Part shown: piece after piece, positions 2,193-9,534 of the stretch
Layout of the letters: each line of letters starts with the position of its first letter
How positions within the stretch are numbered: the stretch's first letter is position 1
Source of the DNA: an uncultured archaeon
GTDB taxonomy: Archaea; Iainarchaeota; Iainarchaeia; Iainarchaeales; 0-14-0-20-30-16
NCBI GenBank assembly: GCA_964565125.1
Contig: CAZMCX010000002.1
Coordinates: forward strand, 16,260 to 25,793
Direction of reading: 5' to 3'
Length of the DNA: 9,534 nt
Notes under the pieces: model-generated
Database searches by the model: none
Seen by the model: only the letters and a program-made list of their open reading frames with translations
Told to the model about the DNA's origin: nothing
Translations under genes and position numbers: made by a program

Positions 2193-2465
2193 TTATTGTT
2201 TGTTTTTCTCTTTTTCGAACTTGGCTTCTAATGTTTTTTCAACTTCTTTTACGAATTCTGGCTCTTTATCTGCTATTTTTTCCATATGCCTGTCTTCTAA
2301 CTTGTTGTGTACGTAAAAATAAGCAGTTATTATTGCATCTAAGTCCAATTTTCTTTTATAACCTAATCTTGCAATCTGTTCAAAATAAAGTTTAACAATA
2401 TTATATGCAACTATCTCTCTACTAGCCGTTTCAGCACCAATTACTTTTCCGAAATCTAAGTCCAT
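2193..2465 (-). CDS. Hypothetical small (90 aa) soluble, predicted helical protein with K/E-rich tail
   Basis: An ATG-initiated ORF with a G5 run (complement of 2473-2477) 7 nt upstream as an RBS. It has no TM segment, no Cys and no motif I recognise. It lies upstream of and co-oriented with rfcL (67-nt gap), and is divergent from the pilin operon. Confidence 0.6.
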   Translation of the reverse strand: MDLDFGKVIGAETASREIVAYNIVKLYFEQIARLGYKRKLDLDAIITAYFYVHNKLEDRHMEKIADKEPEFVKEVEKTLEAKFEKEKNKQ

Positions 2466-2599
2466 TTTTAGGCCCCCAAATATAATTTACTATATAACAA
2501 TGAAAAAGGATATTTAAATACTTTTACTTTTTTTCTCGGTTTTAACAGAAACTTATAAAAATAAGTATATCTTATATATTTAGAAAACCAGGTGTTGTA
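2466..2599. promoter_or_regulatory. Divergent intergenic promoter region for the pilin operon (+) and the 90-aa gene (-)
   Basis: A 134-nt AT-rich gap. TTATAAAAAT (2553-2562) is a TATA-box-like element 38-47 nt before ATG 2600, with AGGTG (2590-2594) as the RBS. ATATTTAAA (2508-2516) is a candidate TATA for the minus-strand gene. This rests on position and composition only, and AT-rich genomes give many false TATA matches. Confidence 0.35.
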
Positions 2600-2779
2600 A
2601 TGATTAAATTCCTTAAAGACCATAGAGGGCAAGCATCTATAGAGATTCTTATAGGGGTAGTAATTGTGATAGTTATTGCAACGCTTGTTGGGCTATTTTT
2701 GAAAAAGAGCCTGATAAAACCGCAAGAGCAAGGTGCGGATTTGATAGACAAAGTTTCTGGAGATATTGGGGGTAAGTAA
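2600..2779 (+). CDS. Mini-pilin 1: class III signal peptide (DUF361/PF04021-like) archaeal type IV pilin, 59 aa; not in supplied ORF track
   Basis: My own translation is MIKFLKDHRG|QASIEILIGVVIVIVIATLVGLFLKKSLIKPQEQGADLIDKVSGDIGGK, ending at TAA 2777-2779. AGGTG lies 5 nt upstream of the ATG. It has Q at +1 and E at +5 like the next three genes. Its stop is 1 nt before the next start. Confidence 0.72.
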   Translation: MIKFLKDHRGQASIEILIGVVIVIVIATLVGLFLKKSLIKPQEQGADLIDKVSGDIGGK

Positions 2780-2780
2780 C

Positions 2781-2978
2781 ATGTTAAAATTTTTTGATGA
2801 AAAAAAGGGACAGGGTGCTTTAGAGTACATTTTGATTATCGGTGCAGCAGTTCTAATTGCTGCAATAGTAATAGCAATCTTAGTAAGTGCCGGAAGATCA
2901 GGTAAAGACGATGCAAACAGCGCACTAAGCAAACAACAAAAAGATTTTAATACATTAAAAAATATTGCAAATGAGTGA
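2781..2978 (+). CDS. Mini-pilin 2: class III signal peptide archaeal type IV pilin, 65 aa
   Basis: MLKFFDEKKG|QGALEYILIIGAAVLIAAIVIAILV..., followed by a short hydrophilic tail. The track start at 2766 is TTG. ATG 2781 is preferred because it gives a typical 10-aa basic leader and GGGGGT (2768-2773) lies 7 nt upstream. It is a close paralog of the next gene. Confidence 0.85.
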   Translation: MLKFFDEKKGQGALEYILIIGAAVLIAAIVIAILVSAGRSGKDDANSALSKQQKDFNTLKNIANE

Positions 2979-2983
2979 TACCT

Positions 2984-3190
2984 ATGGGTTTTCTTAAAGA
3001 AATTAAAGGGCAGGGAGCCCTTGAATATTTATTAATCATTGGTGCAGCAATTCTTTTGGCAGCAATAGTTATCGGTGTTTTAATAAAAACATCAAGTAAT
3101 GCAAAAGATGACATAAACGACACCCAAAAGGTATATGATGACCAAGTAGATAAAGCAAAGAAAGAGTTTGGATTAGACAATAATGCTTAA
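2984..3190 (+). CDS. Mini-pilin 3: class III signal peptide archaeal type IV pilin, 68 aa
   Basis: MGFLKEIKG|QGALEYLLIIGAAILLAAIVIGVLI..., followed by a hydrophilic tail. The track start at 2975 is GTG. ATG 2984 is preferred, with GTGAT (2975-2979) 4 nt upstream. The N-terminal 30 residues are near-identical to mini-pilin 2, with many third-position DNA differences. Confidence 0.85.
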   Translation: MGFLKEIKGQGALEYLLIIGAAILLAAIVIGVLIKTSSNAKDDINDTQKVYDDQVDKAKKEFGLDNNA

Positions 3191-3202
3191 TAAAGTGATT
3201 TT

Positions 3203-3394
3203 ATGTCTATAACAAAGTTTGTAAAGGATAAAAAAGCACAGATAAGCTTTGAATACCTTCTTACTATTGTTTTTGCTGTTCTTTTGGTTATTGCAGTAAC
3301 TCTTTTTGTTCTTCAGCTGAGAAAAATAGGGCAAGTTGCTCAAACCAAGATAGAAAACTACAAGATCGAGTATTTTAAGAAAACCTTCGAATAG
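3203..3394 (+). CDS. Mini-pilin 4: class III signal peptide archaeal type IV pilin, 63 aa
   Basis: MSITKFVKDKKA|QISFEYLLTIVFAVLLVIAVTLFVL... It has KA at -2/-1, Q at +1 and E at +5. AGTGAT (3194-3199) lies 3 nt upstream of the ATG. Confidence 0.75.
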   Translation: MSITKFVKDKKAQISFEYLLTIVFAVLLVIAVTLFVLQLRKIGQVAQTKIENYKIEYFKKTFE

Positions 3395-3424
3395 TTTTTT
3401 ATTCTCTCTTTTTCTATTTTAATA

Positions 3425-4504
3425 ATGTATTTTTTAGATTTGGTATTTTCTTATTTGCCATACATCCTCGTCTTCATAGCCTTAGCAATAGGGTCTTATA
3501 CTGATCTAAAGACAAGAGATTTACATAATTGGCTTACATTTGGGCTCATCATACTTGGAATTCTATTCTGGGTTGCAAAAAGCATTTATGTTGAACAATT
3601 CTTATATTGGCCTTTGCTTATTGGCCTAATAACCTTTGTTATTTGTTACCTGCTCTGGTATTTTTCAGTATTTGCTGGTGGGGATGCAAAGCTTATTGCA
3701 GGAATTGCATTCTGTATTCCCTATCAAGACTTCTCAATATTCTTTAATAATGGAATTAATCCTTATTTTTTACCTGTTTTTTTTGTTCTTGCAGTTTTCA
3801 TAGTATTCCCCCTGGGATTTTTCTTGGTTTTGAAAAGGATAATCATGAACAAATATTATAAAATAATTTTAAAAGATTTAATTAAGAAACTTCCGGGGTA
3901 TTTAGAAGTTGCAGTTACTCTTGTTGGGCTATATTACATTTTCTCTCTTTTGCAGATCCCAACAATTTTTGCTTTGCTTTCCTTCTTACTATTTAAAATA
4001 AATTGGAAGCTGCGTCTGCCAATCGCAATTATTGTTTTTGCAATTGCAATATATCTAAATCCCTTACGCCTAGTTGATGTTTTGATTTATGTATTGATTT
4101 CAATAGTGTTCTTTTCCTTTGTAAAATTATTTGGCTTTGTAAGATCTAAAGAATTTGCAGACCTAAAGAAGATAAGCGCATTAAAAGAGGGGGATATACT
4201 CTATAGTTCTGTTTACATAAAGGATAACGCCCTAATAACAAAGCCAACAATAAAAGATATGTTTAAAAACATCAAAAATAAAGATATATTACAAAAAACA
4301 ATCCGATCTATGAAAAACAAGAATTATGATATAGTAATTCAAACAAGGCCTGCGGGGCTTTATGATGAAGAAATAAAAATATTAAAGAAATTAAATAAAA
4401 ATAAAGTAATTCCCGCAGAGATTTACATTAAGCAAAGCGTTCCGTTGACACCTTCGTTGTTTTTAAGTTATATTGTGTTATTATTTATTGGTGGATTATT
4501 ATGA
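3425..4504 (+). CDS. A24-family prepilin/preflagellin (class III signal) peptidase, EppA/PibD/FlaK-like, with extra TM segments and a roughly 100-aa soluble insertion
   Basis: 359 aa, polytopic. The first catalytic Asp motif is SYTD27LKTRD (gat 3503-3505) and the second is FAGGD87AKLIAG (gat 3683-3685), which is the GxGD-type aspartyl protease signature. The gene sits among its presumed substrates. Its stop overlaps the next start in ATGA (4501-4504). Confidence 0.85.
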   Translation: MYFLDLVFSYLPYILVFIALAIGSYTDLKTRDLHNWLTFGLIILGILFWVAKSIYVEQFLYWPLLIGLITFVICYLLWYFSVFAGGDAKLIAGIAFCIPYQDFSIFFNNGINPYFLPVFFVLAVFIVFPLGFFLVLKRIIMNKYYKIILKDLIKKLPGYLEVAVTLVGLYYIFSLLQIPTIFALLSFLLFKINWKLRLPIAIIVFAIAIYLNPLRLVDVLIYVLISIVFFSFVKLFGFVRSKEFADLKKISALKEGDILYSSVYIKDNALITKPTIKDMFKNIKNKDILQKTIRSMKNKNYDIVIQTRPAGLYDEEIKILKKLNKNKVIPAEIYIKQSVPLTPSLFLSYIVLLFIGGLL

Positions 4505-4965
4505 AATTTGGAAAAGGCAAGGGGCAAATGACTATTGAGTTTATCTTAATAGTAGTTGTGATACTGATTTTATTACAAACTATTGTTGTGCCATTTACTA
4601 ATTATGCAAAGGACTCGGTAATTGATATTTCATCTTTGTCCTATGTTGATCAATCTGCTAACAATCTAAAACAATCAATAGAATTTGTGACTATGAATGA
4701 ATCAATGGCAAAAACACAAGTAACAATATTTATCCCTGTTGACTCAAACTTAGTTGTTTCTGCAGATTCGATATCTTATTTTATTTTATTAAAAGATGCG
4801 CCAAAGAATTCTAATTGTAATAATGATGGTTTGTGCACAAAAACAATTTATTTACAAAAAGGAATTTCCAACAGCGAAGATATAATTTTACCTGGAAAAA
4901 AAGAATATTCCTTAAATATTTTTAAAGAGCCCGGTGGAAAAACTTATGTTGAGCTTTTGCAATAA
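4501..4965 (+). CDS. Pilin-like protein with class III signal peptide and about 120-aa globular domain (154 aa)
   Basis: MKFGKGKG|QMTIEFILIVVVILILL... with Q at +1 and E at +5. GGTGGA (4490-4495) lies 5 nt upstream. It is translationally coupled to the peptidase (ATGA). A C106-x5-C112 pair is at 4816-4836, and N-x-S/T sequons are present. Confidence 0.72.
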   Translation: MKFGKGKGQMTIEFILIVVVILILLQTIVVPFTNYAKDSVIDISSLSYVDQSANNLKQSIEFVTMNESMAKTQVTIFIPVDSNLVVSADSISYFILLKDAPKNSNCNNDGLCTKTIYLQKGISNSEDIILPGKKEYSLNIFKEPGGKTYVELLQ

Positions 4966-5299
4966 GAACAACCTAAATAGTAAGGGACAATCAAGCTTTG
5001 AAATTCTTTTTGTTACAATAGTTGTTATTCTGCTTGCAGGAATATTGTATTATTTTACTTTAGGAAACACAAAAGAAATAAGTAATATGGGTGTAGTAAA
5101 GACTGAAGTAGAATCATTTTTCGTTGAAAATAACTTACAGATAACTGTTTCGAATATAGATCTGGCGGTAAATACAAATCTTGTTCAAGCAAAAATAAAA
5201 TTATCAAAATCATACGAATTCTCAGAAATTCAGCTTGAATTATTGAAATCAAAAATAAAAAAGAAAATAAAGAAAGATGTTGAATTTATCTTTTATTAA
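4946..5299 (+). CDS. Pilin-like protein with class III signal peptide (117 aa)
   Basis: MLSFCNKNNLNSKG|QSSFEILFVTIVVILLAGILYY... with Q at +1 and E at +5. The track start at 4934 is a GTG lying inside GGTGGA (4933-4938). That motif is 7 nt upstream of ATG 4946, which I therefore prefer. The gene overlaps the previous one by 20 nt. Confidence 0.65.
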   Translation: MLSFCNKNNLNSKGQSSFEILFVTIVVILLAGILYYFTLGNTKEISNMGVVKTEVESFFVENNLQITVSNIDLAVNTNLVQAKIKLSKSYEFSEIQLELLKSKIKKKIKKDVEFIFY

Positions 5300-7467
5300 A
5301 TTCCAAGATTTTTCTCGAACTTTCTGTAAGTATCTATAACATCTTTTGTTAAGCTGGGTTTTGTTTTCTTTAATGCTTGTTTTATATCATCATCAGTTAT
5401 TGATGTATCCTTCATTCTTGATCTTTCTAGTGCAATTAATGCTGATTCTCTTAATAAAGAATTCAAATCGGCACCAGAATAACCGTCTGTTTTTTCTGCC
5501 AAAGTTTCGATAAAAGTTTCCCCTTCTTTTGATAAAGGCATTCTAGTAATTATTTTCTTAATTATTTCCTCTCTTGATTTCAAATCTGGTGCTGGAACAA
5601 ATATAATATTGTCAAATCTTCCTGGCCTTAATAGTGCAGGATCAATAATATCTGGTCTGTTAGTTGCCGCAATAAGTACAACCCCTTTCAGTTCTGATAA
5701 GCCATCTAATTCAACTAGTAGTTGATTTACAAGCCTAGCACTCACCCCCCCATCTGCTATCTGGTCTCTTTTTGGGGCTAAAGCATCAATCTCATCAAAG
5801 AATATAACACAGGGGCTTGTCTGTCTTGCTTTTGTAAAAATTTCTCTAATTGTTTTTTCACTATCTCCGACCCATTTACTAAAAACTTCTGGGCCTCTAA
5901 CACTAATAAAGTTAGCTTCACTTTCATTAGCAATTGCTTTTGCAAGCATCGTCTTTCCAGTTCCGGGCGGCCCGTATAATAAAACCCCCTTTATTGGATC
6001 TATACCCATTTTTCTAAAAGAATCTGCGTGTTGTAACGGCCATTCTACACTTTTCTTAAGCTGCTCTTTTACTTCTTCTAGGCCCCCAATATCAACCCAA
6101 GTAACATTCGGAATTTCTACCATTACCTCTCTTAGGGCAGAGGGCTGTACTTCTTGTAAGGCTTTTGAAAAGTCTTGCATGGAAATTTCTATGCTTTCTA
6201 AAATATCTGGTGGAATTGTTTCTTCCTCCATATCAATTTTTGGAAGTATTCTTCTAATTGCTTGCATTGCCGCCTCTTTAACTAAAGCATTTATGTCTGC
6301 ACCAACAAAACCATGGGTAATCCTTGCTAATTCTTTTAAGTCAACATCTTTTTCTAATGGAACACCCTTGGTGTGTATATTGAAAACTTCAAATCTTCCA
6401 TTTTTATCTGGTGCGTTAAAGTGTATTTCTCTATCAAATCTTCCCGGTCTTCTTAAAGCAGGATCTAAAGAGTTTGGTCTATTGGTTGCAGCAATAATTA
6501 TTATGTCTCCTCTTGCTTCCAGCCCATCCATAACACTTAATAGCTGCCCAACTACTCTTCTGCCAACTTCACTTTCTGAGTCGTCCCTGCTAGATGCTAT
6601 TGCATCAATTTCATCGATAAAAATTATTGCGGGCGCATTTTCTTGTGCATCTTTAAAAATAGTTCTGATTTTTTCTTCAGCACCGCCAACATACTTGCTT
6701 ATTATGCTGGGGCCATTTATGATACTAAAATTTGCATTTGTTTCGTTTGCTATTGCTCTTGCAAGTAAAGTTTTTCCAGTTCCTGGCGGCCCAAAAAATA
6801 AAATTCCTTTTGGTGGAGCAACCCCCATTGTTCTAAAAATTTCTGGGTGCTTTAAGGGTAATTCAACTAATTCCCTTACCTTACTTAATTGTTTTTCTAA
6901 TCCCCCAATTTCATTATAACCTATTTTTGAAATACTTGCTGACTCCAAAGTGATAGGGGTTTCTAATAGTTCAAATAAAGTGCTGTCACTAACATAAACA
7001 AAACCCGTTGGATTTGTTTTTGCAACAACATAAACCATCGCATTTCCAAATAAAGATAAAAATAACTGATCTTCTGTGTTTAATGCTTTTCCCAAGTATT
7101 GTTTTTTCGCAACTCTTGCAAAATTATTGTTTTGGGGCAGTTTTACATTTTGTGTTGGTGCCAAATAAACCTTGTGCGCTTCTTTTACTACTGCTTTTTT
7201 TACAACTACTGTGTCACCAATCGCAACCCCGGTATTAAGTCTAATTAGACTGTCCATTCTTACAAATGGTTCTGCATCATCTTGTGGTCTTGTAGGCCAG
7301 ATTTGTGCAACAGTTTCTTTACGGCCCTTTATAGATACGAAATCTCCAGAAGTAAGTCTCAGCCTTTCTTTACTGGTGCTATCAAGAGTAATAATATTAC
7401 GTCCAACCAAACTTGGGTCGGCCTCTTTTACCTTAATAATCACTTCGCTTATTTTTGTGTATTCCAT
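5296..7467 (-). CDS. cdc48: Cdc48/VAT/p97-type AAA+ ATPase (N domain plus D1 and D2 rings)
   Basis: 723 aa. An N-terminal double-psi-barrel-like region runs from ..VGRNIITLD.. to ..GDTVVVKK. D1 has GPPGTGKTLLARAIA and IIFIDEIDAI. D2 has GPPGTGKTMLAKAIA and VIFFDEIDAL. The pore loops are KYVGGAE and KWVGDSE. Both rings carry the second-region-of-homology element RPGRFD. Confidence 0.95.
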   Translation of the reverse strand: MEYTKISEVIIKVKEADPSLVGRNIITLDSTSKERLRLTSGDFVSIKGRKETVAQIWPTRPQDDAEPFVRMDSLIRLNTGVAIGDTVVVKKAVVKEAHKVYLAPTQNVKLPQNNNFARVAKKQYLGKALNTEDQLFLSLFGNAMVYVVAKTNPTGFVYVSDSTLFELLETPITLESASISKIGYNEIGGLEKQLSKVRELVELPLKHPEIFRTMGVAPPKGILFFGPPGTGKTLLARAIANETNANFSIINGPSIISKYVGGAEEKIRTIFKDAQENAPAIIFIDEIDAIASSRDDSESEVGRRVVGQLLSVMDGLEARGDIIIIAATNRPNSLDPALRRPGRFDREIHFNAPDKNGRFEVFNIHTKGVPLEKDVDLKELARITHGFVGADINALVKEAAMQAIRRILPKIDMEEETIPPDILESIEISMQDFSKALQEVQPSALREVMVEIPNVTWVDIGGLEEVKEQLKKSVEWPLQHADSFRKMGIDPIKGVLLYGPPGTGKTMLAKAIANESEANFISVRGPEVFSKWVGDSEKTIREIFTKARQTSPCVIFFDEIDALAPKRDQIADGGVSARLVNQLLVELDGLSELKGVVLIAATNRPDIIDPALLRPGRFDNIIFVPAPDLKSREEIIKKIITRMPLSKEGETFIETLAEKTDGYSGADLNSLLRESALIALERSRMKDTSITDDDIKQALKKTKPSLTKDVIDTYRKFEKNLGI

Positions 7468-7488: not shown

Positions 7489-7899
7489 TCATTTCTCAGT
7501 TTTTATCAAAGCGTAAGTCAACCACCCAAGGAACCCCCCGATTATAAAATAAACATAGGGGGTTGTAGCCATATAGGTTAGCCAATTTATATTAAGTTGG
7601 CTAAATACATCTGAGAATTTAATACTTGTAAATATTGCCCTCTCTCCAAAGTAGATTAAGAACGCAAGGTAAAACCCTAAAAAAAGGAACACAATCATAA
7701 ATATTCCGTTATAGTATTCCTTGAAATTATACTTTATTATCTTTTCAAGATATATAAATATAATAAATATCAATAAAAAAGATACAGCAGGCATAATGTA
7801 GTAAAGTGCGCTGTTAAATTTTGCTGTAAGCCCAACTAAACTAAAAACAATAGAAATAATATAAGTTACTATCAATCCAAACAATGCGTATAAGTACAT
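7489..7899 (-). CDS. Hypothetical integral membrane protein, about 4 TM helices (136 aa)
   Basis: Four long hydrophobic stretches separated by short K/E/Y-rich loops. A G6 run (complement of 7908-7913) lies 8 nt upstream of the ATG. The stop is 21 nt upstream of the cdc48 start on the same strand, so co-transcription is likely. Confidence 0.72.
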   Translation of the reverse strand: MYLYALFGLIVTYIISIVFSLVGLTAKFNSALYYIMPAVSFLLIFIIFIYLEKIIKYNFKEYYNGIFMIVFLFLGFYLAFLIYFGERAIFTSIKFSDVFSQLNINWLTYMATTPYVYFIIGGFLGWLTYALIKTEK

Positions 7900-7974: not shown

Positions 7975-8937
7975 ATGCTTAAAGAAAACCTGCCATGGAT
8001 CGAGAAGTATAGACCGGATTCTTTGAAGGATGTAGTAGGCCATTCAGGGATAATTGATAGGCTTAGGAGCTATGTAAAACTTAATAGGGTCCCAAACATG
8101 CTTTTCACCGGCTCCGCAGGTATTGGAAAGACAAGTTCAGCTATTGCTTTAGCCAAAGATCTCTTTGGTGAACATTATGACCGGAACTTCTTAGAGCTAA
8201 ATGCTTCTGATGATAGGGGTATAGATGTTGTAAGGAACACAATCAAAGAGTTTGCAAGAACCCTTCCTTTTAATTCCGATTATAAGTTAATCTTCCTGGA
8301 TGAAGCCGATTCTTTAACTGCGGATGCTCAGCAGGCGCTAAGAAGGACAATGGAAAAGTATGTAAAAACCAGCAGATTTATTTTATCCTGTAATTATTCT
8401 AGTAGAATTATAGAACCAATCCAAAGTAGATGTGTTGTATTTAGGTTTAAGCCATTAGAGAAAGAGATAATAGCCTTAAAACTTGGCGAGATAGGCAAGA
8501 TAGAAAAACTTGTTTTTGAAAAAGAATCTTTGGACTCATTGTTTTATGTTTCTCAAGGCGACTTAAGAAAAGCAATTAATATTCTTCAATCTACTGCATC
8601 ACTTGACTCAAACATAAAAACAGAAGATATTTTTAAAGTAAGTTCTAGGGCAAGACCAGAAGAAATGAAAGAAGTGATTGTTGAATCTTACAAAGGCAAC
8701 TTCAAAACAGCAAGAGAATTGTTATACAAGCTTATGTTTGACTACGGAATGTCTGGAGAAGACATCATTGGTCAGGTCTACACAGAACTTATTGACTATG
8801 ATGAAAGTAAAATTACTTTGGAAGACAAAATAGAATTAATAAAAATTCTGGGAGAAACTAATTTTAGAATTACACAAGGCGCAACAGAAAGAATACAAAT
8901 AGAAGCAATGCTTGCGATGTTTTATTTAAAGAAATAA
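7975..8937 (+). CDS. rfcS: Replication factor C (clamp loader) small subunit
   Basis: MLKENLPWIEKYRPDSLKDVVGH (RFC box II), P-loop GSAGIGKTS, LELNASDDRG, Walker B/DEAD box FLDEADSLT, the SRC arginine-finger motif QSRCVVFRF, and GDLRKAIN. The track start at 7957 is TTG and would add MCLCVN. ATG 7975 gives the canonical N-terminus. No intein is present. Confidence 0.95.
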   Translation: MLKENLPWIEKYRPDSLKDVVGHSGIIDRLRSYVKLNRVPNMLFTGSAGIGKTSSAIALAKDLFGEHYDRNFLELNASDDRGIDVVRNTIKEFARTLPFNSDYKLIFLDEADSLTADAQQALRRTMEKYVKTSRFILSCNYSSRIIEPIQSRCVVFRFKPLEKEIIALKLGEIGKIEKLVFEKESLDSLFYVSQGDLRKAINILQSTASLDSNIKTEDIFKVSSRARPEEMKEVIVESYKGNFKTARELLYKLMFDYGMSGEDIIGQVYTELIDYDESKITLEDKIELIKILGETNFRITQGATERIQIEAMLAMFYLKK

Positions 8938-9071: not shown

Positions 9072-9534
9072 ATGCTGAGACGAAAACCTTCTAAGACGCC
9101 TTCTTTTGCTGTTAAAGAGATTTCTCCAGAAGAGTGGCAAAGGGTTTTGCGTACTGCAAAACATGGAAGAAAGCCCAGAATGCCTAAAACTGATGCTGAA
9201 GCAAGAACCCAGTTTTTGAGTTTGTTAGGGCGTAGGCAAAAGAAATTGGCTGATGTTAATAGAGAAATTTTTGGTGCTTTAACTGAAAGGCAGGCGGTTC
9301 GGAAATGGTCGCACAAGGTTGCTGTCAAAGAGCTGGCTTTGATTGAAGAAATGTGTGCCGGTAATGAGAAAAAAAGAGAGTATGTTGTTGCTAGTTTTAA
9401 GAAGGCAAAAAAACTGTTTGGAGAAAAACTTGAAAATTCTGATTATTTGAAGCGAGTGGTAGAGCATTTGGCAACAGAGTATGATTTGTTGAAGGAAGAG
9501 AAAGGGGGGATTGGTGTTTCAAAGAGGTATTCCC
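9072..9534 (+). CDS. 3'-truncated hypothetical protein, basic and helical (K/R/E-rich); not in supplied ORF track because it has no stop inside the window
   Basis: My own translation from ATG 9072 (in-frame TGA at 9063-9065 just upstream) is MLRRKPSKTPSFAVKEISPEEWQRVLRTAKHGRKPRMPKTDAEARTQFLSLLGRRQKKLADVNREIFGALTERQAVRKWSHKVAVKELALIEEMCAGNEKKREYVVASFKKAKKLFGEKLENSDYLKRVVEHLATEYDLLKEEKGGIGVSKRYS... That is 154 codons with no stop up to the window edge. Its composition is protein-like, unlike the Cys-rich, low-complexity antisense ORFs listed in the track. Confidence 0.6.
   Translation, partial: MLRRKPSKTPSFAVKEISPEEWQRVLRTAKHGRKPRMPKTDAEARTQFLSLLGRRQKKLADVNREIFGALTERQAVRKWSHKVAVKELALIEEMCAGNEKKREYVVASFKKAKKLFGEKLENSDYLKRVVEHLATEYDLLKEEKGGIGVSKRYS

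Follow-up and report, generated by a model that had tools for sequence, protein, structure and literature searches.

Probable Epd-like type IV filament genes around an EppA-type prepilin peptidase in an Iainarchaeota archaeon

The subject of this study is a cluster of pilin-like genes that surrounds a prepilin peptidase gene on contig CAZMCX010000002.1 of assembly GCA_964565125.1. The whole stretch of DNA that was analysed, called the window, comprises 9,534 nt and is numbered from its first letter (position 1). The closest named relative is the Candidatus Iainarchaeum sp. metagenome-assembled genome (MAG) GCA_028710695.1, with a peptidase identity of 90%. The source organism is a Candidatus Iainarchaeum relative of the DPANN phylum Iainarchaeota (formerly Diapherotrites), which bears out the guess of an earlier note on this DNA that it belongs to a DPANN-like organism. 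The ENA contigs L012 to L014 are 99.3-99.6% identical to the window (L014: 99.4%), and an exact match of the peptidase elsewhere was found on one 1976-bp contig only. Scans of genome contigs and of metagenome contigs returned one relative each. For comparison we used L002 (the 90%-identity relative), L004 (the 68% relative) and L009 (a third lineage, syntenic), as well as the more distant L019, L020, L021 and P0139 contig, in which the peptidase identity is 30-33%.

Pilin-like genes on both sides of the peptidase gene

Six small open reading frames (ORFs) on the + strand surround the gene of a 359-amino-acid (aa) peptidase, and two further pilin-like genes lie at the 5′ end of the window. In the list and in the text, a slash marks the predicted cleavage site.

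2466-2599, no strand assigned: AT-rich divergent intergenic region upstream of ORF1, read from the sequence
2600-2779, + strand: ORF1, short Flp/EpdE-like prepilin, 59 aa; leader MIKFLKDHRG, predicted mature N-terminus QASIEILIGVVIVIVIATLVGLF, mature length 49 aa
2781-2978, + strand: ORF2, short prepilin, 65 aa; cleavage site KG/QGALEYILIIGAAVLIAAIVIAI
2984-3190, + strand: ORF3, short prepilin, 68 aa; cleavage site KG/QGALEYLLIIGAAILLAAIVIGV
3203-3394, + strand: ORF4, short prepilin, 63 aa; cleavage site KA/QISFEYLLTIVFAVLLVIAVTLF
3425-4504, + strand: EppA-type class III signal (prepilin) peptidase, 359 aa; D27 and GGD87, about 9 transmembrane (TM) helices, Arc_PepC
4501-4965, + strand: ORF6, larger pilin-like protein, 154 aa; cleavage site KG/QMTIEFILIVVVILILLQTIVVP
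4946-5299, + strand: ORF7, pilin-like protein, 117 aa; cleavage site KG/QSSFEILFVTIVVILLAGILYYF
1-267, + strand: up89, minor pilin-like gene, 89 aa; first codon cut off by the window, N-terminus (M)NKG/FIFTFDLLFIVGLFITLF
248-787, + strand: up179, minor pilin-like gene, 175-179 aa; N-terminus MNKSNKG/FFSVILAVAGVALLLF

A shared N-terminal design with Q at position +1 and E at position +5 had been described for the six ORFs in the earlier note. To quantify it, the regular expression [KR][GA]-Q-x3-E was run on the six-frame translation of the whole window and compared with shuffled sequence. Exactly 6 matches were obtained; each coincides with the N-terminus of one of the six + strand ORFs and precedes a hydrophobic stretch. 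Over 300 shuffles, the motif had a mean count of 0.09 and a maximum of 2, and the strict motif with an 18-residue hydrophobic tail had 0 occurrences. The shared design was thus confirmed, with 6 matches against 0.09 expected. All six ORFs carry the features of a class III signal peptide, namely a short basic leader, G or A at −1, Q at +1, an acidic residue at +5 and about 20 hydrophobic residues.

Orthologues of the ORFs in related contigs show 53-93% amino-acid identity (93% and 71% for ORF1). The ratio of nonsynonymous to synonymous substitution rates (dN/dS) ranges from 0.04 to 0.10 in comparison with the 90% relative and from 0.05 to 0.35 with the 68% relative, close to the 0.05-0.08 of the peptidase and the 0.03 of the RFC small subunit (RFC-S) encoded in the 3′ part of the window. 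Values for individual genes are 0.08-0.12 (ORF1), 0.09-0.35 (ORF2), 0.10-0.19 (ORF3), 0.05-0.09 (ORF4) and 0.05-0.26 (ORF7). The six ORFs are real genes that are conserved and under purifying selection. With the ORF starts used here, the gaps between the genes are 1, 5, 12, 30, −4 and −20 nt, reproducing the values given earlier, and the ATG starts of ORF2, ORF3 and ORF7 agree with those of their orthologues. Within 2466-2599 there are TATA-like runs, and 7 nt ahead of the ATG stands AGGTG, which resembles a Shine-Dalgarno motif; this stretch would constitute the promoter region of the pilin-peptidase transcription unit. A sigma-70 promoter scan yielded 18 sites versus 16 expected, using a model that does not apply to archaea. 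The sole terminator-like hairpin in 2400-5400 (3006-3022) is located within ORF3 at the KGQGALE codons. It looks like a by-product of the GC-rich cleavage-site codons and was disregarded as a terminator.

The four short proteins (59-68 aa; 49-59 aa after predicted cleavage) are tandem paralogues that leave no room for a globular head, as in Flp pilins and in the major pilin family of Methanococcus maripaludis. Profile checks of the small ORFs, which the earlier note had proposed, gave a divided result. The PF04021 model (Class_IIIsignal/DUF361; gathering cut-off 23.7 bits) was passed by ORF2 (35.5 bits) and ORF3 (29.4 bits), which are paralogues of each other; ORF4 (19.6 bits) and ORF6 (13.0 bits) stayed below the cut-off, and ORF1 and ORF7 gave no match. 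TIGR02537 did not match at E<=1. No Pfam model matched ORF1 above threshold; its homologue in L019 lies at 9412-9579 (E=5e-10). A counterpart of ORF4 that had not been called as a gene is found directly 5′ of the peptidase in L019 (GAQVSIEYLLTIVFAIILVAIVTLF). When ORF3 was compared with sequences in the PDB, a weak N-terminal archaellin likeness was seen that is not significant (E=0.075).

The two larger proteins 3′ of the peptidase gene differ in how widely they are distributed. At E<=1e-3, the family of ORF6 numbers 156 representatives (representative clusters). Q9 (+1) and E13 (+5) do not vary among 61 aligned sequences of this family, 51 of which match PF04021 at E<=0.01. The AlphaFold2 (AF2) model of ORF6 (pLDDT 94.4) consists of an N-terminal helix (6-65) and a seven-strand beta head, so that the predicted fold is the pilin design of a long helix with a beta-sheet head. 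An ORF6 profile run against PDB sequences returned sub-significant archaellin and PilA N-terminal matches only. Orthologues of ORF7 occur in L002, L004 and L008 and otherwise in window-like contigs only, and a gene-by-gene comparison found no counterpart in L019. We considered ORF7 as a paralogue of the 117-aa gene up117, which lies just upstream of the window, and rejected this relationship, as the likeness is limited to the N-terminal 29 residues.

The QGALEYLLIIGAAIL N-terminus of ORF2 and ORF3 recurs on larger proteins of the relatives, one of 164 aa that is Cys-rich (L002 556-1050) and one of 393 aa with a faint leucine-rich repeat (LRR) match (L004 464-1645). L004 carries two such proteins (464-1645; 9493-9768) with unusually long leaders that share a ‘PSCxF...TGSxFL..KxGQGA’ insert.

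The genes at 1-787 were overlooked in the earlier note and are two more pilin-like genes of the same system. For up89, an identical gene is present at L012 2012-2281, orthologues are found in L002 (89%) and L004 (57%), and a homologue at L019 12290-12532 lies within a contiguous pilus run (phmmer E=6e-6, searched in the small local L019 protein set). Orthologues of up179 occur in L002 (80%) and L004 (46%); by position and N-terminus its counterpart in L019 is the last gene of that run (12529-13041, MNKG/FFSVVIIV), and no Pfam or NCBIfam model matched up179. In L019, the genes downstream of the ORF6-like gene have their counterparts in a cluster of four genes (117, 161, 89 and 179 aa), which in the clade of the window stands 5′ of the RFC large subunit gene (RFC-L). 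Two of its members, up117 and up161, are located just upstream of the window, and up89 and up179 inside it. The N-termini of the cluster are class-III-like (KG/QISLD, KG/IMFSLD, KG/FIFTFD and KG/FFSVI). Judged by these comparisons, the window contains eight pilin-like genes of one system. Directly 5′ of the four-gene minor-pilin cluster, outside the window, there are SecD/SecF and a small archaeosortase/exosortase-like gene (L012 652-1113, − strand; TIGR04178 31.4 bits, PF09721 31.5 bits), with equivalents at L002 5194-5655 and L004 4283-4762.

A large prepilin peptidase of family A24

The product of the central ORF was matched by Peptidase_A24 (PF01478) with 46.7 bits, above the cut-off of 26.5 and as the earlier note had expected, and by Arc_PepC (PF06819) with 43.2 bits (cut-off 23.4). 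In a sequence alignment with FlaK, D27 aligns with D18, and AGGD87 with GGGD79 of the structure 3S0X. FlaK 3S0X is the sole relative among solved structures, with a core identity of 26-28% over 145 residues and a Foldseek probability of 1.00 over 145 columns. None of 30 homologues, the most divergent at about 20% identity, deviates at D27, G86 or D87. The two aspartates that had earlier been named as catalytic are upheld, and the peptidase belongs to family A24 (GxGD aspartyl).

Hydropathy and an AF2 model (pLDDT 82.6, pTM 0.71) predict that nine to ten helices precede residue ~240 and that a soluble domain of alpha/beta type (about 246-336, within the ~240-340 given to Arc_PepC) lies ahead of a last TM helix. 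Among archaeal prepilin peptidases, the 9-TM form is EppA (arCOG02300) and the 5-TM form is FlaK/PibD (Makarova et al., PMC4858521). The best NCBIfam model is likewise EppA (NF053826), which aligns residues 12-354 with model positions 5-330 of 334, at 54.9 bits; the NCBIfam FlaK model covers the N-terminal residues 13-141 only (35.6 bits). In its architecture, the peptidase is of the EppA type, the large 9-TM form. Because 54.9 bits compare with an equivalog cut-off of 450, we do not file it as an EppA equivalog. FlaK/PibD (5-6 TM; 3S0X) has the same catalytic core but lacks the C-terminal half with the extra TM helices and Arc_PepC, and FlaK processes archaellins (KG/A), not Q(+1) pilins (PMC4390842).

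Substrates of EppA from M. maripaludis require Q at +1 and are negatively charged at +5; the specificity is set by the positions −2 to +2 (PMC4187195, PMC4390842). These papers confirm what the earlier note had given as background, namely that Q(+1) proteins are substrates of EppA and that eppA is located among epd pilin genes. By analogy, the peptidase of the window would be specific for Q(+1) prepilins. Our data support the reading of an EppA-type peptidase embedded among likely Q(+1)/acidic(+5) class III substrates.

Motor genes and the history of the neighbourhood

The pilin cluster is interleaved with the following genes.

791-2125, − strand: RFC-L, flank of the pilin cluster
2193-2465, − strand: soluble protein of 90 aa beside RFC-L; 71-86% identity in relatives
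5296-7467, − strand: CDC48, flank of the pilin cluster
7489-7899, − strand: hydrophobic, probably membrane protein of 136 aa beside CDC48; 59-86% identity in relatives
7975-8937, + strand: RFC-S, flank in the 3′ part of the window
9072-9534, + strand: tandem-repeat gene, an ORF running off the 3′ end of the window; continues in L014 8094-8822 and L011 2-793

A position between replication genes, as stated earlier, is correct for the RFC flanks but not strictly for CDC48, which is an AAA+ unfoldase. The conserved 90-aa and 136-aa proteins gave no family matches, and tRNA and Rfam searches of the window returned no matches.

The earlier note had found no assembly ATPase and no platform gene in the 9.5 kb and had concluded that the locus is a self-contained unit of substrates and peptidase, with a filament built by unconventional or distantly encoded machinery. 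T2SSE and T2SSF genes are indeed absent from the 9.5 kb, but this reflects where the window ends. In L004, the gene order is the same as in the window (RFC-L, 90-aa gene, pilins and peptidase, CDC48, 136-aa membrane gene, RFC-S), and about 1.1 kb past RFC-S a T2SSE ATPase gene (550 aa) is followed by two T2SSF genes (368 and 301 aa), each with one PF00482 match. In L009, CDC48, the 136-aa gene and RFC-S are followed after about 0.9 kb by T2SSE and the next gene. The ATPase and platform genes, for which the earlier note had suggested a scan, lie downstream of RFC-S in syntenic relatives, outside the window.

For the lineage of the window itself, the tandem-repeat gene provides the connection. 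Six near-identical contigs contain an exact match of RFC-S, and every near-identical contig ends within this gene, which looks like an assembly break at the repeat. The repeats are about 41 aa long in the near-identical contigs (VERELPxDLKxLSGTVAxQVFEKRYxSVSxAVSALKRIK), and the local GC content is ~0.39 versus ~0.30 elsewhere. No Pfam model matched the gene, and no homologue stands at this position in L002, L004 or L009. L011, a contig from the same sample as L014, starts inside the same repeats with 92-93% nucleotide identity to the end of L014. After the repeat gene, it encodes a DUF4870-like membrane protein homologous to that of L004 and then a T2SSE ATPase (P0017), which is 83% identical to the L004 ATPase. 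Since L011 overlaps L014 in the repeat gene and carries the ATPase gene, the motor genes would be located a few kb past the 3′ end of the window in its own lineage.

In the four distant relatives (L019, L020, L021 and the P0139 contig, independent of one another), RFC-S, T2SSE, two T2SSF genes, small ORFs and the peptidase are contiguous on one strand. Two to four small ORFs precede the peptidase, two or three of which are PF04021-positive short pilins. Downstream of the peptidase, L019, L020 and the P0139 contig carry an ORF6-like gene, then another four or five small genes; the L021 contig ends at the peptidase. These arrangements argue against both parts of the earlier conclusion: the module is not self-contained, with T2SSE and two T2SSF genes in the same neighbourhood of L004 and L009, and a conventional motor is near, as indicated by the L011 linkage and by contiguity in the distant relatives. 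What speaks for unlinked machinery is the absence of these genes from the window and the situation in M. maripaludis, where the ATPase (MMP0040) and platform (MMP0038/39) genes are far from the epd locus (PMC4187195), a precedent for a pilin-peptidase cluster that stands apart from its motor. With the syntenic relatives, the repeat-gene link and the contiguous runs on the other side, a self-contained unit is largely refuted and we consider it highly improbable.

On the basis of the gene-by-gene comparison with L019, it seems that in the clade of the window a run of genes, formerly contiguous, was broken into three pieces, which are separated by RFC-L, CDC48 and RFC-S. RFC-S stands directly 5′ of the T2SSE ATPase gene on the same strand at L019 4640-7362, L020 1420-4095 and L021 3321-5995, and an adjacency of RFC-S and the ATPase region is also kept in the window's clade. 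L002 contains three extra genes (172, 795 and 1038 aa) between the pilin operon and CDC48 (11906-17999) that are absent from the window. The 795- and 1038-aa products are Cys-rich, with faint DUF4215/CARDB matches and the N-termini NKG/YFGIALIV and SKG/FISVFFVL, and these large proteins may be strain-variable pilus-associated adhesins.

The linked ATPase also bears on whether the locus might be part of an archaellum, the motility apparatus. Its best NCBIfam match is FlaI with 314 bits, and ORF3 shows a weak Arch_flagellin match (E=3e-4). The FlaI score is under the cut-off of 550, however, and TadA is sub-threshold as well. The platform consists of two single-domain genes and not of one FlaJ, none of the loci contains FlaF, FlaG, FlaH or archaellins of ~200 aa, and the peptidase is of the EppA and not of the FlaK type. 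Membership in an archaellum was rejected on these grounds, and we give it practically no chance.

Probable assignment to the Epd-like filament systems

The gene set of archaeal type IV pili of clade 1 (Makarova et al.) consists of an ATPase, a dedicated EppA of 9 TM helices and two TadC-like genes, and its pilins comprise multiple major ones of ~70 aa and five or more minor ones (PMC4858521). The group that Denise et al. call Epd-like has short pilins and two platform genes with a single T2SSF domain each, and bacterial Tad pili are proposed to derive from it (PMC6668835). For DPANN, System 1 has already been reported (Sivabalasarma & Albers 2026, bioRxiv 10.64898/2026.04.22.720090). We assign the region, with a probability of roughly 0.85, to an Epd-like (‘clade 1’/‘System 1’) archaeal type IV filament system of a DPANN archaeon, of which it would encode the filament subunits and their processing enzyme. 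An ATPase with two single-T2SSF platform genes is present in the relatives (L004, L009, L019 to L021 and the P0139 contig) and, through L011, is indicated for the lineage of the window. Short headless candidate major pilins (four of 59-68 aa) are accompanied by several minor ones (ORF6, ORF7, up89, up179, up117 and up161).

Likeness to the Epd pilus of M. maripaludis extends to a large A24 peptidase of ~9 TM helices encoded among pilin genes, a [KR]G/Q cleavage site with an acidic +5 residue in the substrates, headless candidate major pilin precursors of ~60-70 aa next to several larger minor pilins, and an ATPase with two single-T2SSF-domain platform genes that are located apart from the peptidase and pilin genes. 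Unlike in the Epd pilus, the peptidase is here related only distantly to the EppA equivalog model, the short pilins stand in tandem beside the peptidase gene rather than alone, neither Pfam nor NCBIfam matches the minor pilin families, and the loci examined showed no DUF2341 adhesins. The locus belongs to a DPANN host (Iainarchaeota) and is interleaved with RFC and CDC48 genes. With bacterial Tad/Flp systems, the locus shares short Flp-like pilins with an acidic +5 residue, an A24 peptidase without methyltransferase domain, a platform split in two genes and a TadA/CpaF-like ATPase; in several sources, homologues bear the annotation CpaF or CpaA. It differs from them by having no secretin or RcpA/TadD outer-membrane parts and no G/xxxxEY Flp motif in register, and by a peptidase with four extra TM helices and the archaeal Arc_PepC in an archaeal context.

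Several observations weigh against this assignment. The PF04021 cut-off is passed by two of the six substrates only, and the bit score of the peptidase, far under the EppA equivalog cut-off, makes it a distant relative of EppA. Three of the four upstream pilin-like genes are without Q(+1) (G/I, G/F and G/F), and their products may need another peptidase or indicate that the present enzyme is less Q-specific than EppA. A Foldseek search of the PDB with the ORF6 model gave no significant match, the best being a Halobacterium archaellin and FlaF/FlaG at E ~0.08-0.1. The window is tied to the ATPase by a shared repeat gene and a shared sample and not by a continuous assembly, and a FleN/MinD or FlaH-like secondary ATPase, unlike in the Epd pilus, was not seen in the loci examined. 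The assignment is drawn from motif, homology, conservation, synteny, catalytic residues and predicted folds.

From the homology with EppA and Epd of M. maripaludis, the following mechanism can be proposed. The six precursors would insert into the membrane by their N-terminal hydrophobic segment, and the co-encoded 9-TM aspartyl peptidase (D27/D87) would cut after [KR][GA], leaving Q(+1) and E(+5) on the mature protein. The T2SSE ATPase and a two-subunit TadB/TadC-like platform, encoded beyond RFC-S, would then polymerise the subunits into a thin surface filament. The four tandem paralogues of 59-68 aa, which are Flp/EpdE-like and headless, are candidates for the major subunits. ORF6, ORF7, the genes at 1-787 and the two genes just outside the window are candidate minor pilins that would prime or decorate the filament. 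By the same homology, cleavage and filament assembly would take place as outlined, and the filament is probably adhesive. A role of the fibre as host-attachment structure is pure speculation.

A short pseudopilus that serves as an uptake or secretion device for DNA or another substrate, or a bindosome-like structure, would also suit a metabolically reduced DPANN cell. Re-purposing of type IV filament systems has occurred repeatedly (PMC6668835), substrate-binding proteins of the bindosome also bear class III signal peptides (bioRxiv 10.64898/2026.04.22.720090), and the many distinct small subunits, four short paralogues and at least six larger ones, would fit such a device. Against it, Pfam and NCBIfam reveal no substrate-binding-protein, nuclease or DNA-binding domain in any subunit, the sole characterised Epd-like system mediates surface attachment (PMC6668835), and beside the locus relatives encode adhesin-like proteins, LRR-containing or rich in Cys, that begin with the same pilin N-terminus. 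We therefore regard this alternative as quite improbable beside an Epd-like filament.

An Epd-like system might be organised in a further way that combines several of these features. Three pieces (minor pilins; short pilins with the peptidase; motor), taken to be separately transcribed, stand amid essential genes (RFC-L, CDC48 and RFC-S) and strain-variable cassettes, the latter being the giant Cys-rich class-III-signal proteins in L002 and the tandem-repeat protein in the window. Such an arrangement could allow four paralogous Flp-like subunits and variable adhesins to be swapped or mixed on one motor, resulting in a programmable attachment fibre for contact with a host or with particles; its peptidase, unlike EppA, would also accept non-Q(+1) proteins. 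We consider this proposal improbable.

Taken together, the region represents a clean and conserved Epd-like locus in Iainarchaeota for which the subunits, an EppA-type peptidase and a linked motor have been identified. It does not introduce a new kind of machinery, as the apparent absence of a motor is due to the end of the window. Fibres of this type are plausible attachment organelles for small and possibly host-dependent archaea. Since Epd-like systems are the proposed ancestors of Tad, DPANN versions are useful for comparative work.

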